Shown here piece after piece: positions 24,279-47,745 of a stretch of DNA of 64,000 nt. The stretch lies in the NCBI GenBank assembly GCA_903885375.1, contig CAISIK010000054.1, positions 72,789 to 136,788 of the forward strand, in the 5' to 3' direction. The position numbers were made by a program, and so were the translations under genes. How positions within the stretch are numbered: the first letter of the stretch is position 1; the number at the start of each line of letters is the position of its first letter. The DNA comes from an uncultured Pseudomonadota bacterium (GTDB lineage Bacteria; Myxococcota_A; UBA796; SXON01). A model generated the notes under the pieces. That model was given only the letters and a program-made list of their open reading frames with translations, searched no databases and was not told the origin of the DNA.

Positions 24279-24420
24279 GCACTCTCCTCCACTCGGGAGT
24301 CGATTCAAACCAGCTGGTGTTTCAGAAGCGCGCAACCTCGAGGGTCGAGGAGCGCCCGGGAACTTACCACGTCGTCGATGGCGACGCGCAACCATTGGGC
24401 AACAGAGTTGAGCATGTTGG

Positions 24421-31800: not shown

Positions 31801-31914
31801 CCGGCCTGCCGCATCGGGCGCGCTCGGACGAGCCGCCGGGCGACGCACCAGCGGCGCAGACTCGACCGCTTCGGCGGCCGTCGTTTCCGGAGTTTCAGTA
31901 CGCAAACGCGCCAC
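28810..31914 (-). CDS. ftsK: DNA translocase FtsK/SpoIIIE
   Basis: GTG start; N-terminal TM helices; long Pro/Ala-rich linker; Walker A GGTTGSGKSVGINAM; C-terminal gamma winged-helix ISTSMIQRHLKLGYNRACTLMEQLE. Confidence 0.92.
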   Translation of the reverse strand: MARLRTETPETTAAEAVESAPLVRRPAARPSAPDAAGRRPTPRDGGPRGAARRRVEEPDPKRAQLGQILTLVGLAGSAFVALSLASWSPTDASLSVANPGAETLNWCGPIGAYTADALYQAFGWAGWSVLVVGAWLVLKLAGRVNRSVWNGVLGGFALWMVATALDLGVGHEVTRAFPAGGLVGVVTGNALLSHVGRAGGAIGVATGLLAALTALFGINWQPIAAATVERVQSGTPKVGRFLGAATVAAGRGALAVTARAGESLRNRFAPAEEDEEWEQEPLDVVEEQPWRPEAREEAPAPMVVQSPSPLESSLTRRSAGALVVAAEPVEDLPSVHGSVWSAAAPPARDAFTAPQPEKPTRVSGRTLVEVELDPDTSVAVGSSRARAGRPAAAVEELRPRQPAMPVQRPAADEYDVPSPRSLAPRAAVIPDEDEDVDVFEDAQPLRDPTSPHERASNAFGMGSLGEGDRGTAGMSARVDDRLPEPPAPTSNLPAAFSAEVLDMGPAADAIPGRARGKKAAAVMPGNLRSGGCNDDGGAVRESNTPFQLPPLGLLDEHPAIVGATNEGRLRDLAAKLTAKLSDFGVEGRVSAIRPGPVITMFEYEPAPGIKLSKIASLADDVAMAMKALAIRIVAPLPGRGVVGVEVPNEVRQTVWARDVFASSEFRDQRHTLPIMLGKDTEGRPYVADLAKTPHLLVGGTTGSGKSVGINAMLVSLLMTRTPEELRLILVDPKMLEFELYKEIPHLLHPVVTNAALASKVLAWACEEMDRRYRMLGDWQVRNIENFNAKVEAESADWTAEKARTYYPDWPEGSLLPTPKKLPYIVVVIDELADLMMVAGKDVETSIARIAQKARASGIHLIVATQRPSADVVTGLIRSNMPSRLAYQVRTASESRIILDAMGANALLGKGDLLFVPPGVSALTRIHGPFLSDEEVKRVADYCRAQGKPNYAPAIRLDDGDGTVEEVEELGEEMSRYYDEILDIALEKGQISTSMIQRHLKLGYNRACTLMEQLERNGIVGPADGAKPRKVVAQD

Positions 31915-31983
31915 GGAGGAACCTCGTCACTCCGCATCCTACCGCCAGACTCTTGACACGTCGAGAGTGAGACGCGAAGCAAC

Positions 31984-32808
31984 CTAGAAGGGTGACTCGG
32001 GAACGTAGACGTGGTCGCCCGGCTTGAGCATGACATCCGCATCGAGACCGCGCAAAACCCGGCGCAGGTTGATGATCGTCTGGCCCTTGCCGCGGATCAG
32101 CTTGACCTTCGAGGTGAGCGCGGAACCATCGGCACCGCCCGCCGCCGCGACGGCCGTGGACAAGGTCATGCCATCGCGGAAAGGGTAGCTCCCGGCCAGC
32201 TTCACGTTGCCATCGACGAAGATCTGCTGGGCGGGCGGGACCGCGAGGGTATCGCCCGGCATGAGCTCGATGTCGGCCGCGGGATCGCCCTTGGTAAGCC
32301 GGTCGAGGTCGACGACGATCACCTGCCGGCTGGCATCGTTCGCGCCGCGCCACACCTCGGCGAGCGGCGTGCTCGGATCGACAAGTCCGCCGGCGCGAAC
32401 GATCAGGTCGCTGACCCGCATGTGCGCGGCGGTGAGCGGGTATTCGCCAGCGTGCGCCACCCCGCCCGTGACCTTGATGATCTTGGAGTTGATCTGTTCG
32501 ACCCGAATGACCACCTGCGGGTTCTTCACGAACCCATCACGCAGTCGAGCCGCGATCTGCTCGCGCGCACCCGCCAGCGTGAAGCCCTGGATGGCCACCC
32601 GACCCGCATACGGGATTTCGACGGCACCATCCGGGCCGATGGGGAAGGAGCCGCTCATGTCGGGCTGGCCAAGCACCTCCACCGCAACCGAATCGCCGAT
32701 CCCCAGCTCGTACGACACGTCGACCGCCAGCGGCTCGGCAGCAGCCGCGATCATGATCTGCATCAAGCAGAGCCACGCGCCCATTAGAAACCGGAAAACC
32801 CGCACCAT
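31984..32808 (-). CDS. Short outer-membrane polysaccharide export (OPX/Wza-family) protein lacking a C-terminal membrane-spanning helix
   Basis: Poly_export-like YELGIGDSVAVEVLGQPDMSGSFPIGPDGAVEIPYAGRVAIQGFTLAGAREQIAARL. Two SLBB-like units follow (KVTGGVAHAGEYPL...LIVRAGG; FVDGNVKLAGSYPF...AVAAAGG). The protein ends at ...KPGDHVYVPESPF after only 274 aa. Confidence 0.8.
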   Translation of the reverse strand: MVRVFRFLMGAWLCLMQIMIAAAAEPLAVDVSYELGIGDSVAVEVLGQPDMSGSFPIGPDGAVEIPYAGRVAIQGFTLAGAREQIAARLRDGFVKNPQVVIRVEQINSKIIKVTGGVAHAGEYPLTAAHMRVSDLIVRAGGLVDPSTPLAEVWRGANDASRQVIVVDLDRLTKGDPAADIELMPGDTLAVPPAQQIFVDGNVKLAGSYPFRDGMTLSTAVAAAGGADGSALTSKVKLIRGKGQTIINLRRVLRGLDADVMLKPGDHVYVPESPF

Positions 32809-32857
32809 CCACCCTGTCCCACACCAAGTTTAGCACCGCACCTGCGCGCGGCATTGC

Positions 32858-34240
32858 TCAATACGTGAAGGTGAGGCCGAGCGTGCCCGAAAAGTCATCG
32901 TACTGCGTGCTGTAGAACACGCCGTCGCAATCCTTGGCCGAGCACGCGCGGCGCGCCCAGGTGCCCGCGGCGCCGGCGGAGAGCCAGGGCGTGATCTGGT
33001 AGGAGGCGTTCACCTTCATGCCGAGGTTCTGGTCGGCACGGGCCACTTCCCCGTGGAACTCATCCATCCGGTAGCTGAGCTCCCCACCCAGACCCAGGCG
33101 GTTCTGGAAGGTACCCTCGTAGCGGAAGAATACAAAGTTGTACGCTACGTAGTTCGTGAAGACCGCATCCTGGAAGTCCTTGCGATAGCCTGCAGTCAGC
33201 GTTTGCCCCCGCAGCGGCGCGTAGGAGACCTGCAGGTTCACGAGGATGCCATCACCGATCGTGGTGTCATCGGCGAAGGTGTCGGAGCCGGTCGTGTTCA
33301 GCTCGTTGGACGACCCCGCCAGCGTGTCAGCGAAAGGATCATCGAGCACCGACTGCTCATCGTAGGTCATGGCCCCGAAGCCAAGGATCGCCGACGCCGC
33401 AAGCTTCTGCGTGAACTGTCCGGTGACACCGGCGGTTGCTCGCCAAGAGTCCGCATCGGGTTTGCCGATGTAGGCACCGAGCTCGGAGCCCTCGACATCC
33501 GGGCCGACCGCTTCGATGAGGTGGTTCTCCCACCGCAGGAAGTTGTACGAGAAGCTCGCGTTCATCGTCGTTTTCGGCAGGAACTTCCAGCTGCCATTCA
33601 CGATGGGGCCGTACTGGAGCCGGTTGTTGTACACCGAAGAGGTGGACGTGGTGAGCACGTCGGGAACCTCGTAGTTGTCGTAGCCAACCTGCCCCAGCGC
33701 CTCGAAGCTCAACGCCGACCCGGGCCGTACGACGACACCGCCGGTGAGGTCGTTGCCCGTGTGCACCACGTTGGCCGTGGCGTTGCCTTCCTGGGTGGGC
33801 AGCTCCGCGGGGATGGCCTGGTTCTCGAAACGGTCGGCCAGCTTGCCGCCGATCAACGAGGTCGGGAACAGCTGCAGCGCGCCGTTGACCGAGACATTGC
33901 CGAACTGGTCGGCATTCTCGGGGTGGAAGTTGTCTTCCGGGTAGAAGTCGATGAACTTCTTGAGGCTGTAGTCGGCCCCGAGATTGAAGAGCACCACGCG
34001 ACCCTTGGCATCGACCAGCACGGCGGGCTTCAAGACCCACGCCAACGCTGAAACTTCCGGGGACTGGGCGCCGCCATCCGACAGGTAGAGGTTGCTGTGC
34101 GCTTCGATGCCGGTCGTGACCGACGGGGTGATGACGCTCTCCCCCACGCGGATGTGATCGCCCGGCTCGGCATGGGCCACGGGCGAAAACCCAAGGGCCA
34201 AGCCGACAAGAGCCGGGGAAAGCAACCATCCACGCTGCAT
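32858..34240 (-). CDS. Outer-membrane beta-barrel protein (candidate porin partner of the adjacent OPX)
   Basis: Track start is TTG at 34270. I prefer ATG at 34240, which gives signal peptide MQRGWLLSPALVGLALGFSPVAHA. The sequence shows alternating hydrophobic/polar beta-strand periodicity throughout and ends with ...SGTLGLTFTY (aromatic C-terminal OMP signature). Confidence 0.7.
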   Translation of the reverse strand: MQRGWLLSPALVGLALGFSPVAHAEPGDHIRVGESVITPSVTTGIEAHSNLYLSDGGAQSPEVSALAWVLKPAVLVDAKGRVVLFNLGADYSLKKFIDFYPEDNFHPENADQFGNVSVNGALQLFPTSLIGGKLADRFENQAIPAELPTQEGNATANVVHTGNDLTGGVVVRPGSALSFEALGQVGYDNYEVPDVLTTSTSSVYNNRLQYGPIVNGSWKFLPKTTMNASFSYNFLRWENHLIEAVGPDVEGSELGAYIGKPDADSWRATAGVTGQFTQKLAASAILGFGAMTYDEQSVLDDPFADTLAGSSNELNTTGSDTFADDTTIGDGILVNLQVSYAPLRGQTLTAGYRKDFQDAVFTNYVAYNFVFFRYEGTFQNRLGLGGELSYRMDEFHGEVARADQNLGMKVNASYQITPWLSAGAAGTWARRACSAKDCDGVFYSTQYDDFSGTLGLTFTY

Positions 34241-34323
34241 CAACAAGACCTCACAACAACTTCCGGGCAAGCCGCTATCCCGGATCGGCGACAGCCGCCC
34301 CCGGGTTTTTCCCCAATCGATGG

Positions 34324-34845
34324 TCAGAAGGCCGTGGTTACTTCAGGTACATCAACGGGGATTTCGGTTTCGATCTCCTCCATCGCGGCCTCGCCACCGG
34401 AGATGGTGCTGCTGCTCTTGCCAGGATCGCCCGCGGCGCTCTTCAAACAGGCCTGCGCCGCCACGAGGGTTTCCTTCGCCGCCGAGAACAGGACCGCCAC
34501 CTGCCGGTAGTCGCTCCGTGCGCGCCCCGTCTTTCCGGACGCGAGGTTCTGCTTCATCGAGGTGTTCGTCTTGCCGACGATCTCCTGGATGGTCTTGAGC
34601 TGAGGCACCTTGGACTCAAGGCACTTGATCAACTCGTCATCCTTCTTCTTGTCCTGCTTCGCCGTTTCGAGCAGCTTGTTGACCGTGACGACCGCCGCAT
34701 CGATCTCGGCGATCATCTCGGCTGCGCCCTCGGTCATTTCCTTCGGCGTGCTGTTCGAGGAATCCTCCAACGTGGTGGCGATTCCCGGCGTGGCCGCCGA
34801 CGCCGATCCGGCGAGCGTGCAGAGCAACGAGGCGAGTACGAACAT
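34324..34845 (-). CDS. Secreted Lys/Glu-rich helical protein, unknown function
   Basis: Signal peptide MFVLASLLCTLAGSASA. Predicted helical repeats. GC is visibly lower than in the neighbouring genes. A GGAG sits 7 nt upstream of the ATG. Confidence 0.6.
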   Translation of the reverse strand: MFVLASLLCTLAGSASAATPGIATTLEDSSNSTPKEMTEGAAEMIAEIDAAVVTVNKLLETAKQDKKKDDELIKCLESKVPQLKTIQEIVGKTNTSMKQNLASGKTGRARSDYRQVAVLFSAAKETLVAAQACLKSAAGDPGKSSSTISGGEAAMEEIETEIPVDVPEVTTAF

Positions 34846-34931
34846 TTTCGCTCCGGTTAGGCAGGGGTCGGAACCAGCATAGCGCGGGAGCGCCGCTGCC
34901 GCTCAGAAATCGCGCCTACCCGCCGACGCAG

Positions 34932-36269
34932 CTACTGACCCGAAACGACCCAGGCCCACTCATCGACGGTCGCCGTGACCGACTCGTCGAAGCGCATGGA
35001 GCGAACCGTCTTGGCCACGCAGTTGCCGAGCTCCTCGTTGCCGGTGGTGTTCTTCTTGACCACCGCACCCGAAACCTTGCCAGCCTGGATGACCCAGCCC
35101 ACCGCGATGCGGCCGTTGGTGCCCGAGTCCTTCTTCAGCGCCTGCTGCACGCAGGTCTCGATCGCGCCCTTCTTGAGGCGGACCACTCGCCCGATGTCGG
35201 CGGGATCGCCTTCGTCGGTCTGCACGTCGCCATCGCCGCCCTCGACCTTGGCCTTCTTTACGACCACGGCCACACCATCGCCCGTTCCGGCCTTGCCGGC
35301 ATTGGCCTGGGTGATCCCCACCGTGGCATCGCCAGAGCCGCCCTTGCCGCCCGTCTTGAGGCCGGCGTTGCCCTGCGTGGCCATCTCCACGCCGCTCACG
35401 CCATCGAGCGCGCTCGCGAGCGACCCCGACTGGGCCTGCTCGTTGCCGAGGATGTTGTCGACGAACTCGTCGGTACCCACACCATTGGTGCCGAGCGCCT
35501 GGATCACCAGCGACTTCTTGGCCACCGACTCCACGCTCGCCGGCGTCTGTGCGGCCGGGGGCGCATCCTCCGCCTTCGGTGCTTCCTTCGGCTTCTCGGG
35601 AACGGGCTCATCCGCGCCGGGCTCCGGCGCGATTTCCACCACCGGCTTGGGGAGCTCCAGACGATCCACGATGAGGTCGGCCGCGTCATCCACGTGATCG
35701 AGCGCGTTGTCTTCCACGGGCGGCAGGATCAGGATCGCCACGTAGAACAGCACGGCGATGAGGTTGAATACGCCGAACAGCCCGAGAAAAAGCGGGTCGT
35801 CGTCGTTGAAGAAGCGAGGCCGGAAGTCGGCAGCGGTCAGCGCGCGCACCGGCTCGGGTGGCGCGTTGACGAACTGGAAAAGCAGGGTGGTGTTTCCAAA
35901 CGCGAGCTTCCCACGCACGTTTTCGTTCAGCTGGAGGACGTGGTGCTCACCCCGCTTCGACATCTCGCCGCGCGTGCGGAGGTCGCTCAGGTCACGAATG
36001 CCATCCTTCCAGGAAATCTTCCCTTCCACATGCTCCGGCACCACGAGCTGGTAGCTGCCGCCACCGGCCACGAAAAGCGCGTGCATTACGCCAAGATTCG
36101 CCGTCGGAATCTGGAAGCTCGCCTTCGGCCCCGAGCCCACGGTCACGGCCTCGCCCGCGCGGATCAGCCGCTCCTGCGCGATCTTGCCGTCCTGCACCAC
36201 TCCGATCCGGAGCACCTTCGGCAGCGTCTTGGCGGTGGGTTGCGGTTGTGCGGCAGCGGACATGGTCAC
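34932..36269 (-). CDS. FHA-like / TM / Pro-rich linker / TonB_C-like (AgmX-PglI-type C-terminal domain) protein; GltG/GltJ-like
   Basis: The N-terminus VLRIGVVQDGKIAQERLIRAGEAVTVGSGPKASFQIP...GNTTLLFQF is FHA-like. TM segment is LFLGLFGVFNLIAVLFYVAILIL. Linker is PKPVVEIAPEPGADEPVPEKPKEAPKAEDAPPAAQTP. The C-terminus is IETCVQQALKKDSGTNGRIAVGWVIQAGKVSGAVVKKNTTGNEELGNCVAKTVRSMRF. Confidence 0.7.
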   Translation of the reverse strand: MTMSAAAQPQPTAKTLPKVLRIGVVQDGKIAQERLIRAGEAVTVGSGPKASFQIPTANLGVMHALFVAGGGSYQLVVPEHVEGKISWKDGIRDLSDLRTRGEMSKRGEHHVLQLNENVRGKLAFGNTTLLFQFVNAPPEPVRALTAADFRPRFFNDDDPLFLGLFGVFNLIAVLFYVAILILPPVEDNALDHVDDAADLIVDRLELPKPVVEIAPEPGADEPVPEKPKEAPKAEDAPPAAQTPASVESVAKKSLVIQALGTNGVGTDEFVDNILGNEQAQSGSLASALDGVSGVEMATQGNAGLKTGGKGGSGDATVGITQANAGKAGTGDGVAVVVKKAKVEGGDGDVQTDEGDPADIGRVVRLKKGAIETCVQQALKKDSGTNGRIAVGWVIQAGKVSGAVVKKNTTGNEELGNCVAKTVRSMRFDESVTATVDEWAWVVSGQ

Positions 36270-36371
36270 CTTCGGGGAATCTACACGGGCACTCGACAGC
36301 GCGACGTACAGAAGGTTGCAAAAATAACGGCTCGGAGCGCAAGAGGCTCGCCCCGGAGCGACCTTGACCGC

Positions 36372-36842
36372 CTACTCTCCGGCCACGACGAATCGGTACC
36401 GCGGAAAGCCCGCCTGCGAGGCGCTCTCCAGCACCGCGCCAAGCACCTGCCACGGCACCCGCCTGTCGCACTCCACCGACACGGCTGGCGGCTCTGCCCC
36501 ATCCTTCGGAACGAGCGGTGAGAGGCTGGAGACCAACGCCGTGATGGCTCGTCCCTGCATGGCCACCGCCGCGTCCAGTTTGCCATCGCGGATCGCCGCT
36601 ACCGGCTTGCCGTTCACCACGATGTTCTCGGTCGTCACCGTGATGGTGGGCCCGCCCTGCGCCTTGGCTTGGACGTCGCCATTGGGCAGCTCCACCGGCG
36701 AGCTCCCGTCGTAGAGCGGGTCGTAGAACATCAGCAGGAACAACAGGACGAGGGTGAACATGTCCACCATCGAGGTGATGATGAGCCCGTGGGCCATCGT
36801 CGCCCGGCGGGGAGTGCGCCGACGACGAGCGGTCGAACTCAT
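36372..36842 (-). CDS. ExbD/TolR-family motor subunit (Asp-containing)
   Basis: The GLIITSMVDMFTLVLLFLLMF TM helix carries the conserved Asp. The gene overlaps the upstream gene by 4 nt. Confidence 0.8.
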   Translation of the reverse strand: MSSTARRRRTPRRATMAHGLIITSMVDMFTLVLLFLLMFYDPLYDGSSPVELPNGDVQAKAQGGPTITVTTENIVVNGKPVAAIRDGKLDAAVAMQGRAITALVSSLSPLVPKDGAEPPAVSVECDRRVPWQVLGAVLESASQAGFPRYRFVVAGE

Positions 36843-37354
36843 GGCCCACCGGTCGGCGCGGGCCGCGCGTCGGCGCCGTCGACCAGGACAGGTTCGGGGA
36901 ACAGGGGCTTCCGCACCCCGGAGCTACCCGTCTCGGTGACTGCGTCGAAGACCCCGATGATCGTCTGGTACGGGATGCCGGCGTCCGGCGCGACCACCAC
37001 CTGCCGCACGTTCGGGTAGCGGGCGTGCGCGCTCACCATCAGCACGTTCAAGGCTTCGTAGTCGTAGTTCTCCGGGGCGCAGGGCGCGACGCAGGGCACC
37101 GTGCTCTCGCCGGCGTCGCCGCCGCGGACCTCGAATCCGGTGGCGAGGATCCGCACCACTACCCGCTCCTTGTCCTGCTCGTCGGCCAGCTGCTGGCTCG
37201 GCGCCTCCTCCGCGACGAGGGGCGGCGAATCAAGCCGGTGCTCATGCAGGGTCACGAATCGCACCGCAATCAGCGCGATGGGGATGATGTGCACGATGGT
37301 GGACAGGACCGGCGTGAGGTCGAGCTCGGCGCCCACGGGGTTGCGAGCGCGCAC
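36839..37354 (-). CDS. ExbD/TolR-family motor subunit with Ser in place of the conserved TM Asp
   Basis: ELDLTPVLSTIVHIIPIALIAV aligns with E/D-I-N-x-T/V-P-x-x-D-V of TolR/ExbD, but Ser-18 occupies the Asp position. The periplasmic part VVVAPDAGIPYQTIIGVFDAV is ExbD-like. Confidence 0.75.
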   Translation of the reverse strand: MRARNPVGAELDLTPVLSTIVHIIPIALIAVRFVTLHEHRLDSPPLVAEEAPSQQLADEQDKERVVVRILATGFEVRGGDAGESTVPCVAPCAPENYDYEALNVLMVSAHARYPNVRQVVVAPDAGIPYQTIIGVFDAVTETGSSGVRKPLFPEPVLVDGADARPAPTGGP

Positions 37355-37356
37355 GG

Positions 37357-38031
37357 CTACCGCCCGGGGAACGGCAATACAGGAGGAGACTCGGTCGCCT
37401 CGCTTCCCCCGCGAAGCGCATTGAGCAGGTTGATGATCTTCAGCCCGTAGTGGTCGATCTCATCCAGGATGCCGTTGGCCTGGGCCGCGATGAGCCCGTG
37501 GGCCACAAGCGTGGGGATCGAGACGAGCAGGCCGAAGAACGTGGCGTACATCGCGACGGCGATGCCGCTGGAGAGGAGCTCGCCGCGCCCCTGGGCATCG
37601 GCCATGCCCACCGCGTCGAAGGCCATGATGAGGCCGTGGATGGTGCCCAGCAGGCCGATCAGGGTGGAGACGTTGGCGATCATCGGCAGGTACGCGAGGC
37701 GACGGTTCACCTGCGGGCCCACCTCCAGCGTGGCCTCCTCCACCGCATCACGGAGCTCCGATTCCGACCGGTCGTGCCGCAAGAGCGCCGCCTTCACCAC
37801 CCGCGGCAACGCCGCCGCCGGCTCCGCGTTGCAGAGTCGGAGCGCGCCTTCCACATCCCCATCCAGGAGGAGGCGTTGCACCTGCCCCATGAAGTTGGGG
37901 CCGTGGATGTTCGCGCGGAAGTAGACGTAGAGCACGCGGTCGAGCGTGACGCCCAGCGCCGTGAAGGCGCACAGGAGGATGGGGTACATGAACACCCCAC
38001 CCTTCGAAAAACCGTCGATGAAGAACTGCAA
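37357..38031 (-). CDS. MotA/TolQ/ExbB proton-channel protein (AglR/TolQ-like)
   Basis: MIANVSTLIGLLGTIHGLIMAF...GIAVAMYATFFGLLVSIPTLVAH is the MotA_ExbB signature. Confidence 0.85.
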   Translation of the reverse strand: MQFFIDGFSKGGVFMYPILLCAFTALGVTLDRVLYVYFRANIHGPNFMGQVQRLLLDGDVEGALRLCNAEPAAALPRVVKAALLRHDRSESELRDAVEEATLEVGPQVNRRLAYLPMIANVSTLIGLLGTIHGLIMAFDAVGMADAQGRGELLSSGIAVAMYATFFGLLVSIPTLVAHGLIAAQANGILDEIDHYGLKIINLLNALRGGSEATESPPVLPFPGR

Positions 38032-38038
38032 GGGCGAC

Positions 38039-38239
38039 TCAGAACGGCTTGGCTTTGACGCTCGCCACGACCTTGGGGAGGAAGCTCTGCCTCAACTCCA
38101 GATCGTACTTGGGCGTGAGGTGCTGCTTGTTCATGATGATCGCGACCTCGGGCTTCGGGATCTTCACGTTCTTCACGTCGCTCTCGCCGCGAACGCCCGC
38201 GAAAGCAGATTGCGCCAGAAACAGGACGAGCATCATCAC
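38039..38239 (-). CDS. 66-aa secreted peptide (GltF-like by position and size only)
   Basis: Signal peptide MMMLVLFLAQSAFAG. Its start overlaps the stop of the upstream TPR lipoprotein gene by 4 nt. It lies 7 nt upstream of the TolQ-like gene. Confidence 0.5.
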   Translation of the reverse strand: MMMLVLFLAQSAFAGVRGESDVKNVKIPKPEVAIIMNKQHLTPKYDLELRQSFLPKVVASVKAKPF

Positions 38240-39714
38240 TGACCTCCCCAGGGTGAGTCGGGTGAACCCTCAGCGGGCGCCGGTTGTTCCGGCGAAGGCG
38301 GCACGGACGTGGGTGTTTCGGGGGCCGGCGCCCCCCAGGGCGACGGCGCGGGTGCGGGTGCCGGCTCCACCGGGGGGGCGGGCGAAGGCTCCACCGTTCC
38401 GGAAGGCGGGGGCTCGATCGGCGGCGCGGGCTCCGGCGGTGCGGGCTCCGGCGGAGCTTCCGCGGCCCTTTCTGCCGCTTCACGCTCCTTGCGAGCCGCC
38501 TCATCACGCCGCTGCTGGCGGAGGGCTTTCTCCTTGTCCTTCGTGAGCGACACCACCCAAGCGTCCAGTTCGGCGGGGGGGCCGCCACCGGCCCGGCGGT
38601 AGGCCTCCACCTCGGCTACGGCGGTGTCCCATGCCTTCAGGTGGTCGCCATAGACGACAGCCAGGTTGCGGTGCGGCTCCGCGCCGGAGGGCTCGAGCTT
38701 GAGCGCCTGCTCGTAGCACTTGATCGCGTCCTCGAACCGCCCCTGCCCCCGGTACGCTACGCCGAGCGTGAGACGCGGGCCTGCCTGGGTGGGGTAGAGG
38801 CGGACCTGCCGCTCCAGCAGCGGAACGGCGTCGGCGTAGTTCCGGTTGTCGAGGTAGTACCCGCTCAGGAACTGCAGGGCGACGGGCTGGTTCGGGTCGA
38901 GCTCCAGCGCCTTGCGGAACGCATCGAGCGCATCGCCGGAATAGCCGGTGCGAAGGTAGATCTGCCCGAAGTTCGCCTGGAGTTCGGCATTGCGCTCGGC
39001 CCCCTGAACCACTTCGAGCGCCTTGAGCGACATGAAGCGTGCCATGTCCAGCTGGTCGGTGGCCAGGTACACCGAGGCGAGCGAGTTGTAGATGCCGATG
39101 GCGCGGCTGTCGACGAGCAGGGCGGCCTTGGCTTCGGCCACCGCGTCGGGGTAGCGCTTCAGGGCCCGTTGGGCTTCGATTGCGGCGATACGAAGGGAGA
39201 CATTCTTCGGCGCCTGACGGATTCCCGCCTGGTAGCTGGCCAGCGCCGCCTCCATCTGCCCGCGCTGGGCGGACAGGGCACCGAGGTTCAGCCAGGCCTT
39301 CGCGAACGTGGGATCGATCTCGGTCGCCCGCAGCCACGCCCGGCGCGCCTCAGTGTCGTCCTGGAGGATGTGCTGGGCCACCCCGATGTTGTAGGGGATC
39401 TCCACCACGTCGGGGTACTGGGCCGTGAGGGGCTTGAGCAGGTCGAGTGCTGCGCGGGCGCGGCCTTCATCCCCCGTGGTCAGCATCGAAACCGCGTCGT
39501 CGAGCCCAGGCACGGAGGCTTCCGACGCGGGCGCAGTGGCGGCAGGATCGCCTCCCCACACGGGCTCGGCGGGCACCGCAGGCTCGGTCGTGGCGGCAGG
39601 GGCCGACGGGGCGGGCGGGGGTGCAACCTCGACGGGCACGGGTTCGGGCACCGGCGGCGCGGGCGCAACGACCTTGGGCCCGCAAGCGAGCGCGAGCAGC
39701 AGGATGATGCTCAC
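38236..39714 (-). CDS. TPR-repeat lipoprotein with a Pro-rich C-terminal tail (GltE/AglT-like architecture)
   Basis: Track ORF trimmed to GTG at 39714. A GGGAGG sits 6 nt upstream of it, and it overlaps the upstream stop (GTGA). Lipobox LLLALACG. Multiple TPRs (YNIGVAQH, AWLNLGALSAQRGQMEAALASYQ, ...). Tail is PPEPAPPEPAPPIEPPPSG... Confidence 0.75.
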   Translation of the reverse strand: MSIILLLALACGPKVVAPAPPVPEPVPVEVAPPPAPSAPAATTEPAVPAEPVWGGDPAATAPASEASVPGLDDAVSMLTTGDEGRARAALDLLKPLTAQYPDVVEIPYNIGVAQHILQDDTEARRAWLRATEIDPTFAKAWLNLGALSAQRGQMEAALASYQAGIRQAPKNVSLRIAAIEAQRALKRYPDAVAEAKAALLVDSRAIGIYNSLASVYLATDQLDMARFMSLKALEVVQGAERNAELQANFGQIYLRTGYSGDALDAFRKALELDPNQPVALQFLSGYYLDNRNYADAVPLLERQVRLYPTQAGPRLTLGVAYRGQGRFEDAIKCYEQALKLEPSGAEPHRNLAVVYGDHLKAWDTAVAEVEAYRRAGGGPPAELDAWVVSLTKDKEKALRQQRRDEAARKEREAAERAAEAPPEPAPPEPAPPIEPPPSGTVEPSPAPPVEPAPAPAPSPWGAPAPETPTSVPPSPEQPAPAEGSPDSPWGGQ

Positions 39715-42700
39715 TGGGAACCTCCCGACTTCGGCACCGAAGCGGCGCCCTGGAATTCCACGCTCACGCCGGTCGACCCGCCGCGCGCCTCGGTACGCTC
39801 GCCGGCGTACTCCAACGGGAACCGGTCGTGCAGGAGCTGCAACGCCTTGCCGTTCCACTCGCTCCAGCGCTTGTCCACGCGCGCCTTCTCGAGCGAACCG
39901 AGCAGTCGCGCCTTGCCGGTATCTTCAGCACGAAGCCGGATCGGGCTGAATCGGGCGTCCAACTCCTCCTGGAAGATGGCCTTCTCCTCCTCGGAGAACC
40001 CCGGCGGCACCGGGAACGTGTAGACCAGGTCGGCGTAGGCGAAGTACGCGGCGCCCTGCACATACAGCGCCGCCGCGGCCGCATCGTAGTCCTGGTAGGT
40101 CTGGATGAGCGCGAGGCAGTCATCGACGAGGAGGCGAAGCGCCTCGGGCTTCTGCTTCAAGAGCAGGTCGACGTTGGCCTTCTCGCTCGTGCTCCACTTG
40201 TAGGCCTTGAAGGCCTCAAGCTTCGCGATGAGCTCGCGAACGGGCTCCTCGGCCACCAACTTGCGGGCGTCGGAGCTGACCCCGGTGCCCACGTTGGCCC
40301 GGAAGGTGGCATCCATCTCGGCCGCCTTCTGGCGCGCCTTCACCTTCTCGCCCTTGGCCGCGTAGAGCTTGGCGAGCTTGGACTGCGCGATGATGGTGTG
40401 GCTCGGGTTGAGCGCCGCGAAGGGCTGGCGCAGGTATCGCTCGTAGAAGGCGGTCGCCTCGCGCGGACCCACCAGCTCCCACTGCTCGCCCGCCATCCAG
40501 TAGATGCGCTCGGCATCCGGCACGTTCGGGAGGTTGGCGTACTCCTCGTAGTTCTGCGCCGCTTCCTTGTGTAGGCCCATGCCGGTGCGGAGGAACGCCG
40601 AGTTGTAGCGAGCCGCAGGCGCATCGGGGTGGTCGGGCGCCAACTTCACGAGCTTGTCGAAGTAGCCGACCGACTTGTCGAGCTCGAGGATCGAGCTGTA
40701 GCCCGAGGCGATCCGGAAGTACAACGCCTTGGACCGTTCGTCGGTCGGGTAGTCGTTGATGTACTGCTCGAAGAGGGTGTTCGCGCGCGCCGTCTGGCCC
40801 GCCATGTCGAGCTGGTTCGCCTCGTTGTACAGCGCCACGTTCAGGTACTTCGACGTGGGCCACTGCTTGCGGAACTCGGCGTAGCAGGCCGCGGAATCCG
40901 CGTACTTCTGCGACGTGCTGAGATCGAGACAGCGCTGCAGGTTGGCCTGCTGGGCCACCTCCTCGCGGCTGAACTCCCGAGCGGTCTCCTCCACCTTGGC
41001 GATGTCGCCTTCGTTGGTGTAGCTCTGGATGAGGAGGTCGATGGCGAACGCCGTTTCGGGCGCTCCGGGGTAGCGGGCGATCTGCTTGCGGAACCGCTTC
41101 CGCGCATCCTCGTAGTAGCCGTGGTTGTATGAAATCAGGCCGCCGAGGTACGCCATGGCCGGGCGGATGCGCTCGAGCACGGGAATCCAGTCGGGGTCGG
41201 TGAACTCGCGCTCGGCGAGATCGTCGGAGGCCAGGACGAAGGACTTCTGCTCGTCGGAAACGATGTACTGGACGATCTGCTTGCCGGCCGGGGTGGTGAC
41301 CGTGGTGGCCACGAGCGCGCCCTGCGGCACATCCTCCAGCTTGCCGTACTTCGCGAGCGCGATGGCCTCGCGAGACTTCATGAGCTGGAAGAGCGCCCCA
41401 TCCTTGTACTTGCTGCGCGGGTTCTTCAGGACCTGCTGGTACTGGCGGGCCGCCTCCGCGAATTCCTTGCCTTCGTAATAGCAGAGGGCGAGGTACCACT
41501 CGTAGAGGTCGTAATCCGCCGCGAAGGGGTACTTCTGGAGGAAGCTGCGGAAGGTCTCCGCGGCGTCGCGGTAGTCGGCGGGGTTCCGGGTCTCGCGCGC
41601 ACGCAGGAGCTTCTCGGTGGCGATGGTGGCGAGCGAGGACTCGATGAAGCCCCGCGCCGCGGCGATCGCGTCCGGGTTGTTCCGGTTCGCGGCGTACCAG
41701 TTCGTCCCTTCGGTGTAGTTCTGGCCCAGCTCCGTGAGCGCGGCCGCCGCCGACTCCGGATCCCGCACGGGCATCCTGGCGCCGTAGATGAGCGCGATGT
41801 CATGCTGGTAGATCGGGTTGGTCGGATCGAGCGGCCAGCGCTTCTGGAGGAAGCGGTACACGTCGATCGCTTCTTCGTACTTCGTCTGCGTTTCGAGGAT
41901 CTTCGCGAGCCGCTCGATGACGTCGTGCTGCCACTTCTTCTCGCCAATTCGGGCGAGGTGGGCCGAGGCGACGGCGATGGGCTTCTTGTTCTGTTTGTCC
42001 GCCATGTCGGCGTAGGAGATGGCCAGATACTCGACGGCTTCCTTGCGGGTGTCGGCCACCTGCCCGGTCAGCTCGTAGCGCGTGTCGGAGTAGTCGAGCA
42101 GCTCGACGAGGTAGGCCAGCGCCCGATCGTAATCATCGAGCTTGTAGTACGACCAACCCAGCTTGTAGATGGCGCGGTCGTAGTTGCGGCCGCTGGTGCC
42201 ATCCGCCAGCACGGCGTTGTAGTAAGTGATGGCCTGACGAACGTTCGCGAGCGGGTCGGTGCGCGCCGCGAGCAGCTCGAAGTAGTACTCGCCGAGGCGC
42301 ATGTTGGCGTCGTTGGCGAACACGGACTTCGGGTACTTCGTGACGATCGCGACGTACGCATCGCGAGCGGCCACTTCGTCGTACTGGAGCCCGTTCGCCG
42401 ACCCGCGGCACCAGCCCAGCATGTAGTAGGCGTCGGGCCGAAACTCGAAGTCGGGGTAATGCGCGAGGATGTCCTCGTAGAGCGCGATCGAGCGGCGGTA
42501 GTCCTTCTTGGGCTCGAGCTCGGGCGCGGGGTCTTCCACCGCGTCGTAGGCCTCGTTCCGGGCCATGAACTCCACTTCCGACTCATCGTAGTAGAGGTCG
42601 GCCAGCCGGAACTTCATGTCGGCGGCGTACTGCGTGTCCGGGTAACGCTGGAGGAAAGCCTCGATCTTGGCGATGCTCACCCGGCGGAGGGTGGACCCCT

Positions 42701-42950
42701 CCTCCTGGTTGCGGGACACCGCCGCGCCGAAGGTGGATTCGATGCGCTCGCGCTCCTCGGACTCCGTCACGTCCACGATGTGGCTGACGTCGGCGTGGAA
42801 CTCACGCATGCGGCTCGTGTAGCGCTCGGCCGTGTCGCGGAACACACGAAGCTCGGCCTCGTCTGGCTGGGCGAACGCCGCGCCCGGCACCGCAAGCACC
42901 AGGGCAAGGAGCGGAGCGCGGACAGACCCGCGTGTGGACATCCCGCTCAT
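39711..42950 (-). CDS. Large (1079 aa) secreted all-TPR protein (GltD/AgmU-like architecture)
   Basis: Track ORF trimmed to Met-126, whose ATG overlaps the upstream stop (ATGA). Signal peptide MSGMSTRGSVRAPLLALVLAVPGAAFA. TPR-like helical repeats run through the whole length. Confidence 0.75.
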   Translation of the reverse strand: MSGMSTRGSVRAPLLALVLAVPGAAFAQPDEAELRVFRDTAERYTSRMREFHADVSHIVDVTESEERERIESTFGAAVSRNQEEGSTLRRVSIAKIEAFLQRYPDTQYAADMKFRLADLYYDESEVEFMARNEAYDAVEDPAPELEPKKDYRRSIALYEDILAHYPDFEFRPDAYYMLGWCRGSANGLQYDEVAARDAYVAIVTKYPKSVFANDANMRLGEYYFELLAARTDPLANVRQAITYYNAVLADGTSGRNYDRAIYKLGWSYYKLDDYDRALAYLVELLDYSDTRYELTGQVADTRKEAVEYLAISYADMADKQNKKPIAVASAHLARIGEKKWQHDVIERLAKILETQTKYEEAIDVYRFLQKRWPLDPTNPIYQHDIALIYGARMPVRDPESAAAALTELGQNYTEGTNWYAANRNNPDAIAAARGFIESSLATIATEKLLRARETRNPADYRDAAETFRSFLQKYPFAADYDLYEWYLALCYYEGKEFAEAARQYQQVLKNPRSKYKDGALFQLMKSREAIALAKYGKLEDVPQGALVATTVTTPAGKQIVQYIVSDEQKSFVLASDDLAEREFTDPDWIPVLERIRPAMAYLGGLISYNHGYYEDARKRFRKQIARYPGAPETAFAIDLLIQSYTNEGDIAKVEETAREFSREEVAQQANLQRCLDLSTSQKYADSAACYAEFRKQWPTSKYLNVALYNEANQLDMAGQTARANTLFEQYINDYPTDERSKALYFRIASGYSSILELDKSVGYFDKLVKLAPDHPDAPAARYNSAFLRTGMGLHKEAAQNYEEYANLPNVPDAERIYWMAGEQWELVGPREATAFYERYLRQPFAALNPSHTIIAQSKLAKLYAAKGEKVKARQKAAEMDATFRANVGTGVSSDARKLVAEEPVRELIAKLEAFKAYKWSTSEKANVDLLLKQKPEALRLLVDDCLALIQTYQDYDAAAAALYVQGAAYFAYADLVYTFPVPPGFSEEEKAIFQEELDARFSPIRLRAEDTGKARLLGSLEKARVDKRWSEWNGKALQLLHDRFPLEYAGERTEARGGSTGVSVEFQGAASVPKSGGSQ

Positions 42951-45316
42951 TCCAGATTCTCCCGTACGACGCGGAACCGATCGTTCAGCGCACGAATCAT
43001 TGTCGACCGTTCTTCGACCAGCACGTCCTGCTCGTCGGTGTTCTCCATCCGCCGCAGCCAGTAGACATCGACAATGCCCTTCTCGGCATCGACGATGTCC
43101 GCCTCGAACTGCGCCTGCAAGCTGCGGAGCCCAGTGAGGACCGCACGCGTGGCCACCGACTCGGTGGCGACGAGGCTCGCATCGAGATCCCGGCGCAGCT
43201 CCACGACCTTCTGCGAGGTGGCAGCGAGCCGACGGCGCACCGCTTGCGTTTCGCGCGCCTCGCCGGCGGCAACCACCCGCGAGGCCTCGGCCGAGCTGGC
43301 CTCGAGGGCATCGAGCTGGGTCCACAAACGATCAACCTGCGCAAACAGCGCGGCGCTGTCGGTGTCCTGAACGGAACGACGGAACGCGGCCGTCCGCTCG
43401 CGGAGCCGTGTGTACGCCGAGATCGACGCGCCACGCGCCGAGCCATCTTCCACGATCGACGACGACTCCACCGAGCGGAGAACCCGCTTGCGGGTGACGT
43501 CGGACTGGGCCGAGCCGAGATCGCCCGTGGCCTGGGCGAGATCGGCCCGCGCGGCCTCCAGCTCCTTCCGCACGGCATCGAGCTCGGAGGGTGCGAGCTT
43601 GGAGGTCCCGGTGCTGATGACCTCGGCGAGACTCCGGCCCGACGCCGCCGCCTCGTCCGCGACCTGCTGGATGCGGAACGCGCGCTGCTGGACCTCGCGG
43701 ACCTGCGCCTCGTAGATCTGGACCCGATCGGTGATGGCGCCGACGGAGGTGTTCGAGGAGGCCGCGCTCTCGTCCATCGAGGCCACTTCCCGCGCGATCG
43801 CGGCGAGCTCGGCCTTGGCAGGGCCGCCGGACCGACCGCGGAGGTACTGGACCTCCGCCTCGATGAGCCGCCCGCGCATGGAGAGGGCGGAGCCCCGCAT
43901 CAGCGTGAGCTGGTTTCGGGCGGCCACGAACATGCCGAGCGTGTCCTTCTCCGAGGAAAGCGCCGCTTCGAGATCGGCCACATCCCGTTCGGCGCGCTCG
44001 AGCTCCTGCGCCTGGCGCGAGGTTTCGAGGTAGGCACCGAGCGCACGCTTCACGTCCTCGCCGCCGAGGAGCAGATCGACGGCGTGGGCCGGGAGACCCG
44101 AGGTGCCGCCGGTGTCGCCCATGCGCTCCACAAAGCGCCTCGCTTCGGTGGTGCCCTGCCCGAGCTCCTCGAGACGGGCCGCCACCGGCGTGTAGGCCGC
44201 GATGAGGTCTTCGTACGCGGTGCGCGCAGCGTCGAACTCCCGCAGCTTCATGTGCAGGTGACCGCGAACCAGCTTGACCCGCGCGGTGTAGCGGTGGTCC
44301 GGGAAGGCGATGAGGAAGTTGTCGACCTGACCGAGGGCATCCCGCCACCGCGAGGCCGCGTCGGCCTCCGCGAGCTCGGCTTCGCGGCTGCCCGGCTCTG
44401 CGGCCTCCATCACGCTCTCCGCGGCGGAACCCTGCTTGATGTAGGACCACACCGACTCGTACAACTTGTCGGCGAACTCGGGGGAGTTCTGGTCGACCTT
44501 GGCGTAGTAGCCGCTCGCCTGCGAGAACTCGCCGCTCTCGTAGTAGAGCCGCCCCAACGCGAGCAGCGACAGCTCGCGCACCCGCGCCTGCTCGGCATCG
44601 CCCACGGGGGCCGATTCGATCTTCGCGAATTCCGCGGTGGCCTGCTTGAGGTTGCCTTCGGTGATCATCAGCACGCCGAGCTGGTACCGGGCACGCGTGT
44701 ACCAGGCGCTCGTAGGCACGATCGAGTCGAACATGGACTTCGCGCGCGCAGTCTCCTGCCGGCGCGCAAAACCCTTCGCGAGCGTGTAGGTGACGAGATC
44801 GGTGACCTCCACCTTTCCGGACACGATGTAGGTCGTGTAGTAGGTGTTGAAGGCCTCGTCGTTGCGCAAGAGCGCGAAGACTTCGAGGCTGCGACGCACC
44901 GCATCCGCGAAGTAGGGGTGGGAATCGCCCTTGTCCACGATGCCGCGGTAGGCCTCCTCCGCGGTGCGGAGATTGCCGAGCTCGAACAGGCATTCGGCCA
45001 GGTACCACTCGGAGTCGCGGGCGAGGTCGGCGTTGCCGAGCGCGCGCGACTGCACAAGGATGTAGAAGCTGGTCGCAGCGCCTTCGAAGTCGCCCACGAG
45101 GAAGCCGTACACGGCATCCTCGTAGCGGCGCCGAGCCTCGGAAACGCCGATGAGACCGGAGCGCTCGGAGAAGTTCAGCCGCGTGTCATCTACTTCCGCG
45201 CTGATGGTGCCCAGCTCGGTTTCGAGCTCACGCACGCGCTCTCCGCCCGAACGATCCGCCGCCAGGGCGAACTCGGGCAAAAGAAGCAGAAGGAGGATCG
45301 AAGCCCTACTTGGCAT
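42947..45316 (-). CDS. Secreted protein with N-terminal TPR repeats and a long C-terminal coiled coil (GltC-like position)
   Basis: Signal peptide MPSRASILLLLLLPEFALA. TPR-like EWYLAECLFELGNLRTAEEAYRGIV and similar segments. The C-terminal ~350 aa are Ala/Glu/Arg-rich heptads. Confidence 0.7.
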   Translation of the reverse strand: MPSRASILLLLLLPEFALAADRSGGERVRELETELGTISAEVDDTRLNFSERSGLIGVSEARRRYEDAVYGFLVGDFEGAATSFYILVQSRALGNADLARDSEWYLAECLFELGNLRTAEEAYRGIVDKGDSHPYFADAVRRSLEVFALLRNDEAFNTYYTTYIVSGKVEVTDLVTYTLAKGFARRQETARAKSMFDSIVPTSAWYTRARYQLGVLMITEGNLKQATAEFAKIESAPVGDAEQARVRELSLLALGRLYYESGEFSQASGYYAKVDQNSPEFADKLYESVWSYIKQGSAAESVMEAAEPGSREAELAEADAASRWRDALGQVDNFLIAFPDHRYTARVKLVRGHLHMKLREFDAARTAYEDLIAAYTPVAARLEELGQGTTEARRFVERMGDTGGTSGLPAHAVDLLLGGEDVKRALGAYLETSRQAQELERAERDVADLEAALSSEKDTLGMFVAARNQLTLMRGSALSMRGRLIEAEVQYLRGRSGGPAKAELAAIAREVASMDESAASSNTSVGAITDRVQIYEAQVREVQQRAFRIQQVADEAAASGRSLAEVISTGTSKLAPSELDAVRKELEAARADLAQATGDLGSAQSDVTRKRVLRSVESSSIVEDGSARGASISAYTRLRERTAAFRRSVQDTDSAALFAQVDRLWTQLDALEASSAEASRVVAAGEARETQAVRRRLAATSQKVVELRRDLDASLVATESVATRAVLTGLRSLQAQFEADIVDAEKGIVDVYWLRRMENTDEQDVLVEERSTMIRALNDRFRVVRENLE

Positions 45317-45962
45317 CCGTGATCCGCTCGCACTTCAGCTCGAAGTCGACCTTGGCGCGCTCCTCGAACGAGTTGACCACGCCGCCCCGATCACTCACGA
45401 CCGCGCGCACCGTGCAGCTCTTGCCGAGCTCGGCCGCGAACGCGTAGGTGCTGCGCACGTTGATTTCATAGTCGCGGGCGTACGTGAAGACGCCGGCGCC
45501 GGTGGGGCGGATCTTGAGGTCGACCGAGAGGTTGTGGTTGCCGGGCGGCACCGCGCCGTCGTGGATCTTGAATTCCCGGCTCTGGTCGAGGCTGCCCGAG
45601 GGATCAGCCTTGCTGAACTTCGACTGACCGTCGAGCAGGTACTGCACCGACTCGAGCCGGAACGCTCCGGACAATTTGTTTACGTGCCAGATGGTCGCGC
45701 GGGCCCCGGAGGAGCTGCCTTCGATGACGATCTCCTTGAGGAGCTGGAGCGTGGCCTTGCTGCGGAAAACACGCTCTTTCAAGCTGTCGACCTGCTGCTC
45801 CACCGTGAGCAACTCGCGGTTGAACTCCGCCGTGCTCTCGTTCGCGCCCACGAGGGGCTCCTCCTTGGTGGCCTCGTCGGCCGCGAGGGCGGGCGAGGCG
45901 GAACTGGAGACGGCGAGAAGCCCCACGGCAACGAGCATGGAGGACCAACGATACAGGGACAT
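45306..45962 (-). CDS. Secreted beta-rich protein, unknown function (first gene of the array)
   Basis: Track ORF trimmed to Met-49 (signal peptide MSLYRWSSMLVAVGLLAVSSSASPALA). A short coiled coil is followed by beta-strand-like segments. It overlaps the next gene by 11 nt. Confidence 0.6.
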   Translation of the reverse strand: MSLYRWSSMLVAVGLLAVSSSASPALAADEATKEEPLVGANESTAEFNRELLTVEQQVDSLKERVFRSKATLQLLKEIVIEGSSSGARATIWHVNKLSGAFRLESVQYLLDGQSKFSKADPSGSLDQSREFKIHDGAVPPGNHNLSVDLKIRPTGAGVFTYARDYEINVRSTYAFAAELGKSCTVRAVVSDRGGVVNSFEERAKVDFELKCERITDAK

Positions 45963-46002
45963 TCCGGGACTCCCGAGGGACTGCGCCCCACGTAACGCGG
46001 CT

Positions 46003-47547: not shown

Positions 47548-47745
47548 GGGTCACCCGAGGCTGGGTTCACCGGTACAGACACCGGCGGGGAAGGAGTCGC
47601 TCCCTGCATTCTCACGCACCCGACGGGATGGGGCAAGAGTGCAAGGAAAAAAAGCTAGATACGTCGATTGAATTGCTGCGTGGTCGAGCGGTGTGCATGA
47701 CATGTCAAGCCTTCCCGCCCGCGATCGGCTCGTTAGCTTCTATGG
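47548..47745. promoter_or_regulatory. Divergent dacB / sppA intergenic region with an AT-rich patch and a 10-bp perfect palindrome
   Basis: 198-nt spacer. The AT-rich ggaaaaaaagctagatacgtcgattgaattg (about 47645-47675) is unusual in this GC-rich DNA. TGACATGTCA lies at 47698-47707. No promoter consensus could be assigned confidently. Confidence 0.4.

Follow-up and report, generated by a model that had tools for sequence, protein, structure and literature searches.

A Glt/Nfs-like locus with its own motor and a polysaccharide exit pore in uncultured Myxococcota

A 64,000-nucleotide stretch of DNA from an uncultured Myxococcota bacterium (assembly GCA_903885375.1, contig CAISIK010000054.1, positions 72,789 to 136,788; hereafter the window) carries twelve consecutive genes, g01 to g12, related to the gliding (Glt) and spore-coat (Nfs) machines of Myxococcus xanthus. 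Its identity is well supported: the locus belongs, complete and with its own motor, to the Agl/Glt/Nfs family of envelope-spanning machines, and it corresponds to the M. xanthus G4 cluster plus wzpB-wzaB. Judged by homology, it may encode a machine that uses the proton-motive force (PMF) for Nfs-like handling or export of a secreted polysaccharide, with a Wzp barrel and an OPX (outer-membrane polysaccharide export) protein at its outer end. We put the probability of this reading at roughly 0.55. Domains were assigned by Pfam and NCBIfam searches of all twelve products, and the comparison with Glt and Nfs proteins used NCBIfam equivalog models and G4 loci. In transcription order the genes are:

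g01, 45306..45962, minus strand: 218 aa, secreted, signal peptide; first gene, family-specific
g02, 42947..45316, minus strand: 789 aa, secreted, GltC-like; N-terminal tetratricopeptide repeats (TPR), long helical C-terminal half
g03, 39711..42950, minus strand: 1079 aa, secreted, GltD-like all-TPR scaffold
g04, 38236..39714, minus strand: 492 aa, GltE-like TPR lipoprotein; LALAC lipobox, Pro-rich tail
g05, 38039..38239, minus strand: 66 aa, secreted GltF-like peptide
g06, 37357..38031, minus strand: 224 aa, AglR/TolQ-like proton channel subunit; MotA_ExbB 80.7 bits
g07, 36839..37354, minus strand: 171 aa, divergent TolR/ExbD-like; ExbD 24.4 bits (cutoff 25.4)
g08, 36372..36842, minus strand: 156 aa, TolR/ExbD-like; ExbD 42.2 bits, TolR TIGR02801 26 bits
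g09, 34932..36269, minus strand: 445 aa, GltG-like transducer; AgmX/PglI (TonB-C-like) C-terminal domain
g10, 34324..34845, minus strand: 173 aa, secreted, helical; family-specific, always between the GltG-like gene and the barrel
g11, 32858..34240, minus strand: 460 aa, Wzp-type outer-membrane beta-barrel; PF10082 33.8 bits
g12, 31984..32808, minus strand: 274 aa, periplasmic class-3 OPX, D1-D2-D2; Poly_export and two SLBB domains

The locus is a counterpart of M. xanthus G4 and wzpB-wzaB

Cluster G4, taken here as MXAN_1917-1924, has as its gltD homologue MXAN_1922, whose function is unknown (Luciano et al. 2011), and published locus tags identify WzaB as MXAN_1915, WzpB as MXAN_1916 and mglA as MXAN_1925. 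In Myxococcus eversor (locus L099) the last gene of the cluster encodes a 204-aa OPX, ~93% identical to the crystallised M. xanthus WzaB, and the gene before it a 420-aa barrel. Counting genes in this locus from mglA (g01, C, D) or back from wzaB (barrel, two genes, G, F, E, D) leads to MXAN_1922 both times. Comparative loci give the M. xanthus order as mglB-mglA-G4-wzpB(MXAN_1916)-wzaB(MXAN_1915), without motor genes. The g01 counterpart in Myxococcus is the gene right after mglA, which we infer to be MXAN_1924. The exact assignment of MXAN_1917 and MXAN_1918 is uncertain, because the ~540 nt between the GltG-like and g10-like genes of M. eversor (L099:16281-16819) contain a 159-aa open reading frame (ORF) 'x' (16294-16773) with an Arg/Ser/Pro composition like that of a wrong frame.

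BLASTP of the window proteins against their M. eversor counterparts gave the following identities, aligned lengths and E-values:

g01: 41%, 176 aa, E 8e-42
g02 (C): 27%, 366 aa, E 1e-34
g03 (D): 28%, 1060 aa, E 2e-85
g04 (E): 32%, 435 aa, E 6e-28
g09 (G), against the 448-aa G-like protein: 31%, 434 aa, E 1e-47
g10: 19%, 119 aa, pairwise not significant; found at the syntenic position by a hidden Markov model (HMM)
g11 (barrel), against the WzpB counterpart: 23%, 402 aa, E 7e-8
g12 (OPX): 29%, 157 aa, E 1e-15

The M. eversor G4 proteins score below the NCBIfam thresholds just as those of the window do (GltC 67, GltE 102 and GltG 172 bits, the last from model position 223). Among the best 80 of 576 GltD-like matches, all Myxococcaceae loci are of the G4 type.

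Both loci share the order g01-C-D-E-F-G-g10-barrel-OPX, the g01 and g10 families and a GltG-like protein of ~445 aa that lacks the first FHA domain. They differ in that G4 has no motor genes in the cluster, whereas the window has TolQ-TolR-TolR between F and G, and in that G4 is preceded by mglB-mglA but the window locus by dacB. WzaB, a lipoprotein of 204 aa, has the D1D2 architecture and FF and RR motifs; g12, at 274 aa, is a D1D2D2 non-lipoprotein that ends in PF and has no RR. Identities between the window and G4 reach only 19-41%. In the literature searched, we found no paper that names MXAN_1922 together with MXAN_1915 or MXAN_1916. The gene mxan_1915 has been called 'orphan-like', lying 1.016 Mbp from the synthesis cluster of the biosurfactant polysaccharide (BPS) (Islam et al.).

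Motor and transducer

The preliminary description of this DNA, made from its letters alone, had proposed a motor of TolQ plus two different TolR paralogues, as in AglRQS, and this was confirmed. The channel subunit g06 also matches TolQ/ExbB NCBIfam models, below their cutoffs, and its TTG start is backed by an N-terminus that is conserved in the orthologue alignment. The two TolR-like subunits are not equivalent. In 20 aligned orthologues g07 has Ser at the canonical transmembrane Asp position and an invariant His one turn on (PVLS..H), whereas g08 retains the Asp (TSMVDMF), and this difference is conserved across all 20. A heterodimeric plug inside a TolQ-like pentamer has been modelled for M. 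xanthus AglR5-AglQ-AglS, and by analogy the g07/g08 difference would match such an arrangement.

The transducer g09 consists of a cytoplasmic N-terminal domain, one transmembrane helix, a Pro/Glu/Lys-rich linker and an AgmX/PglI C-terminal domain (NF033768, 59.5 bits, cutoff 40). Its best full-length match is the GltG model, over positions 225-629 of 650, with 82 bits (cutoff 650). In M. xanthus GltG these positions correspond to the second FHA-like domain, which is membrane-proximal, together with the transmembrane helix, the disordered linker and the TonB-C-like domain (Cambillau & Mignot). Since the match starts at model position 225, g09 lacks the first FHA domain of GltG. Pfam and NCBIfam bear out every architectural class named in the preliminary description except 'FHA-like' for g09. 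Pfam finds no FHA domain there, and the term applies only by homology to the GltG segment so named by Cambillau & Mignot. A protein search with g09 reached only uncultured relatives and not M. xanthus GltG. One metagenome-assembled genome (MAG; loci L020 and L023) additionally holds, at L023, a second, stand-alone GltG-like gene that is 44% identical to g09, with no other cluster gene within 10 kb on either side.

Periplasmic scaffold and small secreted proteins

The earlier proposal that the TPR and TonB-like proteins are homologous to Glt/Nfs proteins also held, as GltC, GltE and GltG are the top or near-top NCBIfam matches. Their scores lie far below the equivalog cutoffs, so the locus proteins are relatives and not orthologues of the gliding proteins. 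For g02, with TPR matches in Pfam, the top NCBIfam match is GltC (NF033756, 65 bits, cutoff 450). The lipoprotein g04 matches GltE (NF033758) nearly over its full length with 109.5 bits (cutoff 225). The scaffold g03 matches TPR_6 and YfiO in Pfam and exceeds the cutoff of the YbgF/CpoB-type repeat model TIGR02795 with 108 bits; no GltD model appeared for it in the NCBIfam output. At least 576 relatives of this GltD-like protein were found in species genomes.

The small peptide g05 has no match in the Pfam or NCBIfam libraries but is kept at the same position in all loci. Its conserved C-terminal motif, SF[LV]PKV...KPF-COOH, is common to the Myxococcus GltF-like protein, with 39% identity over the C-terminal 41 aa. 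The Myxococcus protein itself weakly matches the CglF model.

Neither Pfam nor NCBIfam has a match for g01. Its AlphaFold2 model, with a predicted local distance difference test score (pLDDT) of 74, shows a long helix (residues 41-84) and a beta-sandwich (88-213). A PDB fold search with it returned only generic immunoglobulin/transthyretin-like sandwiches with template modelling (TM) scores of at most 0.31. Some of its 518 homologues are misnamed 'dihydrolipoamide acetyltransferase'. The helical g10 likewise has no significant Pfam or NCBIfam match, and an HMM built from the g10 proteins of the window clade finds g10 syntenically in distant loci, including Myxococcaceae, with 44-69 bits.

The barrel and the OPX form a known type of pore

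The last two genes encode a known class-3 OPX/Wzp composite translocon, with WzaB/WzpB as its M. xanthus counterpart. Such translocons pair a class-3 OPX (at most 280 aa, Poly_export and SLBB, no outer-membrane helix) with a Wzp barrel of 18 strands encoded next to it (Schwabe 2022, Saidi 2022, Mellouk 2026). Both D1D2 and D1D2D2 variants of the class-3 OPX have been described, and examples of the pair are EpsY/EpsX, ExoA/ExoB and WzaB/WzpB. In the window, too, a short OPX of at most 280 aa with Poly_export and SLBB stands beside an 18-stranded barrel, with 49 nt between the genes. The window pair differs from the described ones in standing at the end of a Glt-like cluster, without a polysaccharide co-polymerase (PCP), Wzx/Wzy or ABC gene in the 64-kb window, and in having an OPX that is not lipidated and lacks the twin-Arg motif for PCP binding.

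The AlphaFold2 model of g11 has 18 long strands (pLDDT 86.5, predicted TM score 0.80), and the protein ends in TFTY. Foldseek against the PDB returned many generic barrels of 16-22 strands with TM scores of 0.33-0.47, and AlgE and PgaA were outside the top 50. The mature N-terminus (residues 22-29, A-x-A-x-PGDHIR) is near-invariant in 39 barrel homologues. This PGDHIR N-terminus could be a docking strand for a periplasmic partner.

The OPX g12 has a type-I signal peptide and no lipobox, outer-membrane helix or Wza_C domain. Among solved structures, the crystal structure of M. xanthus WzaB (9n9a) is the nearest to it, at E 5e-18, and E. coli Wza ranks behind. The preliminary description had called it a truncated Wza-type OPX. 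It is a class-3 OPX whose terminal PESPF is conserved among orthologues as PES-x-[FI], an end that resembles that of WzaB. The C-terminal aromatic residue by which WzaB binds WzpB is kept only in part.

Locus layout and conservation

The twelve ORFs run from 45962 to 31984 on the minus strand, each with a coding-type G+C content at third codon positions (0.82-0.91) in a window of ~69% G+C. The tight junctions noted in the preliminary description are real, with overlaps of 4-11 nt and gaps of 2-102 nt. The g01/g02 junction is an 11-nt overlap, and 4-nt overlaps occur at g02/g03, g03/g04, g04/g05 and g07/g08. Short gaps separate g05/g06 (7 nt) and g06/g07 (2 nt), and wider ones follow from g08 on: 102 nt at g08/g09, 86 at g09/g10, 83 at g10/g11 (53 with the TTG start) and 49 at g11/g12. 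Spacing alone does not delimit an operon, because the flanking genes share the strand and are equally close, with 40 nt between the end of dacB/PBP4 (upstream) and g01 and 69 nt between g12 and the start of ftsK (downstream). Consensus scans of 30000-48500 found no sigma-70-like promoter and no minus-strand terminator-like site and therefore cannot define transcription units. Rfam and tRNA scans found no RNA gene inside the locus.

That the whole gene order, motor included, recurs in ~37 species-level genomes puts it far beyond chance. The nearest genomes are MAGs of uncultured Myxococcota, mostly from freshwater lakes. Twenty species-level loci, at 43-92% identity, keep all twelve genes together with dacB and ftsK. 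More distant loci were reached by profile-based scans, and cultured genomes through GltD-like alignments only. MAGs labelled Nannocystaceae, Bradymonadia and Lujinxingiaceae, and one closed MAG chromosome, have the complete twelve-gene layout without dacB and ftsK. A distant clade of UBA796/UBA2385-type MAGs keeps g01 to g11 and has no OPX. In cultured Myxococcaceae/Archangiaceae and in MAGs of Anaeromyxobacteraceae the order is g01-C-D-E-F-G-g10-barrel-OPX, with no motor genes, and the cluster follows mglB-mglA directly. The cultured genera with this layout are Myxococcus (M. xanthus, M. eversor), Archangium, Pyxidicoccus, Citreicoccus and Corallococcus. In Hyalangium, mglBA and the cluster through G are present and no g10, barrel or OPX was seen, and some loci hold g01-C-D-E-F-G only.

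After duplicate removal, 93 species-level Myxococcota loci were informative, with an OPX counted if it lay at most 7 kb downstream of the GltG-like gene. By this measure 72 of the 93 have an OPX, 8 a barrel only and 13 neither; the barrel is thus retained even where the OPX has been lost. The OPX-positive loci comprise 27 that are mglBA-flanked and motor-less, 20 that are ftsK-flanked with a motor, 17 with a motor and other flanks, and 8 motor-less with other flanks. The preliminary description had the OPX/barrel pair appended to the Glt-like set, and the survey supports this: the pair accompanies the Glt-like genes in different Myxococcota classes and in three flank contexts.

In ~29 Myxococcia-type loci, including every Myxococcaceae, Archangiaceae and Anaeromyxobacteraceae locus with enough flank, the motor-less G4-type cluster is immediately preceded, on its own strand, by the polarity GTPase operon mglB-mglA (L099:5441-6519 in M. 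eversor; L131 and L206:5506-6584 in M. xanthus AM003). Two MAG loci, L155 and L185, have mglBA together with a cluster that does contain the motor; mglBA is absent from the window. Sugar-nucleotide genes adjoin the cluster in two other lineages. An opposite-strand gene for an NAD-dependent sugar epimerase/dehydratase lies between the barrel gene and ftsK in the OPX-less clade (L038:13543-14676, minus). In another locus (L050:14818-20398) nucleotide-sugar genes come after the OPX: an epimerase, SIS plus hexapeptide transferase, a GFO/IDH/MocA oxidoreductase and an HMGL-like gene. The records of L006, L011, L017, L020, L133 and others are titled Klebsiella, Enterobacterales, Rickettsiales or Comamonas, which are evident taxonomic mislabels, as the locus is clearly myxobacterial.

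Comparison with related envelope machines

A single-locus arrangement of this kind was already on record. The core complex of Luciano (2011) brings together GltC, D, E, G and AglR, Q, S in one locus of unknown function in Gammaproteobacteria, Geobacter and Fibrobacter. The window shares with it the GltC/D/E/G-like proteins, the TolQ-like gene and the two TolR-like genes in one cluster. Going by the published description, the core complex has one extra gene without a myxobacterial homologue, and no GltF, g01, g10, barrel or OPX is reported as part of it.

The Agl-Nfs spore-coat machine (NfsA-H with AglRQS) works with the Exo/MASC polysaccharide. It shares with the window locus the C-D-E-F-G set in one operon (a putative one in the window) and a TolQ/TolR/TolR motor, and it acts, as the window machine may, on a Wzx/Wzy-made polysaccharide whose exit is a class-3 OPX/Wzp pore. 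In Nfs, C is preceded by the NfsA/B barrels and G followed by NfsH, and g01 and g10 are missing. In the window, the place upstream of C is taken by g01, which consists of a helix and a beta-sandwich and is no barrel, and that downstream of G by the helical 173-aa g10. The motor and pore genes (exoA/exoB) of the Nfs system are at other loci, whereas the window locus holds both.

The Agl-Glt gliding machine (clusters G1, G2 and M1) has homologous C, D, E, F and G proteins and AglRQS-type parts, with the same predicted path from the stator via a TonB-like protein to a TPR pillar; a GltG-GltD-GltE-GltC-GltF chain has been modelled for M. xanthus. Its genes are dispersed, while those of the window are clustered. 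No GltA/B/H/K, GltI/J or CglB-like adhesin was found among the twelve products or the other scanned genes of the window.

With Tol-Pal, the locus shares a TolQ/TolR-type stator, a TolA/TonB-like transducer and the CpoB-like TPR repeats of g03. It differs in having two different TolR paralogues, three very large TPR proteins and an export pore as outer-membrane end, and no TolB/Pal. Pfam and NCBIfam detected no TolA, TolB propeller or Pal/OmpA-like lipoprotein domain in any of the twelve products. We rejected an identity with Tol-Pal on these grounds, in agreement with the preliminary description.

A possible polysaccharide machine and its alternatives

How such a machine might work can be outlined from its relatives. 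A TolQ-like pentamer of g06 would hold a heterodimer of the two TolR-like subunits, g08 carrying the proton-binding Asp and g07 having lost it. Proton flow through this stator would move the single-pass, TonB-like g09, whose periplasmic linker and TonB-C-like domain may engage the TPR scaffold of g03 (pillar), g04 (lipoprotein), g02 and g05. The linker would wrap around the GltD-like pillar, and the GltE-, GltC- and GltF-like proteins would extend the chain to the outer membrane. There the scaffold is predicted to reach a module of the Wzp-type barrel g11 and the class-3 OPX g12, aided by g01 and g10, in place of GltA/B/H/K. We would place the outer-membrane end at the barrel because no GltA/B/H/K-like outer-membrane proteins are present and because the barrel is kept where the OPX is lost. 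Its most likely task would then be to use the PMF on a polysaccharide as this leaves through the pore, whether to export, anchor or spread it, with the genes for polymer synthesis presumably elsewhere in the genome. That it acts on a secreted polysaccharide is suggested by Agl-Nfs, since that machine acts on the Exo/MASC polymer.

The persistence of the OPX in 72 of 93 loci and of the barrel in 8 more, across ftsK, mglBA and other flanks, argues for this polysaccharide machine. So do the family matches of the parts, the homology to the G4 proteins, the sugar-nucleotide genes that adjoin the cluster in two other lineages, and the precedents of Agl-Nfs with its Exo/MASC polymer and of the stator and Glt chain modelled for M. 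xanthus. Several observations weigh against it. WzaB, WzpB and WzcB form a trans-envelope complex in which no G4 protein has been implicated, and in WzcB the M. xanthus pore already has a known partner that suffices. WzaB binds the co-polymerase WzcB via its twin-Arg motif, and this motif is not conserved in g12. None of the scanned genes of the 64-kb window encodes a Wzx, Wzy, PCP or glycosyltransferase. A polar insertion in MXAN_1922 leaves gliding and soft-agar twitching normal (Luciano et al. 2011), whereas wzaB mutants are defective in swarming (Islam et al.). Taken together, these two phenotypes indicate that the pore genes of M. xanthus are probably expressed separately and that BPS export is not strictly G4-dependent. 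Finally, 13 of the 93 loci have neither barrel nor OPX.

The WzaB-WzpB-WzcB complex, the normal polar mutant and the 13 loci without the pair give substantial weight to another explanation, though we hold it to be unlikely on balance: the genes may be neighbours and not partners. The barrel and OPX would then serve a Wzx/Wzy-PCP pathway encoded elsewhere, the Glt-like core would have an unrelated role, for example a Tol-like task in envelope integrity or division, and their adjacency would be inherited history. The envelope and division genes dacB, ftsK and lolA that neighbour the locus in the window fit this explanation, as do the above-cutoff score of g03 on the YbgF/CpoB repeat model and the larger gaps (49-102 nt), which start exactly at g09 and continue to g12. 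On the other hand, mere inheritance accounts poorly for an adjacency that persists at ~27-31% protein identity, across classes and in three unrelated flank contexts. In M. xanthus, wzaB has stayed beside G4 in spite of the 1.016 Mbp to its synthesis cluster. Retention of the barrel where the OPX is lost also speaks for a partnership, and as this paralogue type has no GltA/B/H-like component of its own, it would have no outer-membrane end without the barrel.

Two further alternatives can be set against the proposed polysaccharide machine. The homology to GltC/D/E/F/G, the AglRQS-type motor and the mglBA genes upstream in some relatives could point to a gliding engine like Agl-Glt. We regard this as very improbable, as the locus lacks GltA/B/H/K-like small barrels or lipoprotein, GltI/J and a CglB-like adhesin, and the Glt equivalog scores are far below cutoff (65/450, 109.5/225 and 82/650 bits). 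Moreover, the core genes are insufficient for gliding and the G4 gltD homologue is dispensable for it (Luciano 2011). Slimmer still are the chances of TonB/ExbBD-type uptake with the barrel as an energised importer, even though the locus combines genes for an ExbB/ExbD-like motor, a TonB-C-like domain and an outer-membrane barrel. The 18-stranded barrel has neither a plug domain nor the signature of a TonB-dependent receptor. Known TonB uptake has no place for an OPX export protein or for three large TPR proteins, and the family context is Glt/Nfs.

What is known and what the locus adds

The preliminary description regarded the arrangement as uncharacterised. As a kind it is not: a core that holds its motor within a single locus has been known since 2011 and the translocon of OPX and barrel since 2022, the existence of G4 is on record, and the paralogue type of the window is catalogued in M. 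xanthus as G4. We did not find descriptions of the G4-type paralogue joined at the locus level to a WzpB/WzaB-type pore across Myxococcota classes, of the widespread motor-containing twelve-gene form, or of the position of the cluster between mglBA and wzpB-wzaB in class Myxococcia.

The functions of the Agl/Glt core complex and of the M. xanthus paralogues G4, G5 and M2 have been open since 2011. The idea that the gliding and spore-coat motors descend from a polysaccharide-handling system has had little genomic evidence so far. The ~37 relatives with the full layout and the 72 with a linked OPX tie one Glt paralogue type to a polysaccharide exit pore across Myxococcota classes, and in M. xanthus that pore is WzpB/WzaB of the BPS pathway. 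This raises the possibility of PMF-energised secretion or deployment of polysaccharide at the outer membrane. The link is of value chiefly because it allows the function of G4 and of the core complex to be tested in a tractable organism. A more far-reaching idea is that the locus encodes a self-contained, PMF-energised machine for polysaccharide secretion or deployment that acts directly on the Wzp/OPX pore and is ancestral to the Nfs and Glt motors, with G4 (and the M2 motor paralogues) as the missing Nfs-like partner of the BPS pathway. We consider this speculative and rather doubtful.

Other genes in the window

The neighbours of the locus are housekeeping genes: besides dacB and ftsK, they include lolA, a MiaB/RimO-type radical-SAM enzyme, an H+-pyrophosphatase and a second TolQ/TolR pair, as well as murB, riboflavin genes, glyA, rpiB, an LptA-like gene and pyrG. 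The second pair, a MotA/ExbB-like protein of 259 aa and an ExbD/TolR-like protein of 152 aa (23154-24395, minus strand), is encoded downstream of the H+-pyrophosphatase gene, and no TolA, TolB or Pal could be recognised beside it; L016 and L043 contain a similar second pair. The 1548-aa product of a gene at 10996-15642 (minus strand) contains FG-GAP repeats and 13 putative metal-binding repeats of the MopE type. The sole RNA gene found in the window is tRNA-Phe(GAA) at 51892-51967, and a riboflavin cluster (ribH, ribBA, ribD-like) lies near it at 53770-57268.

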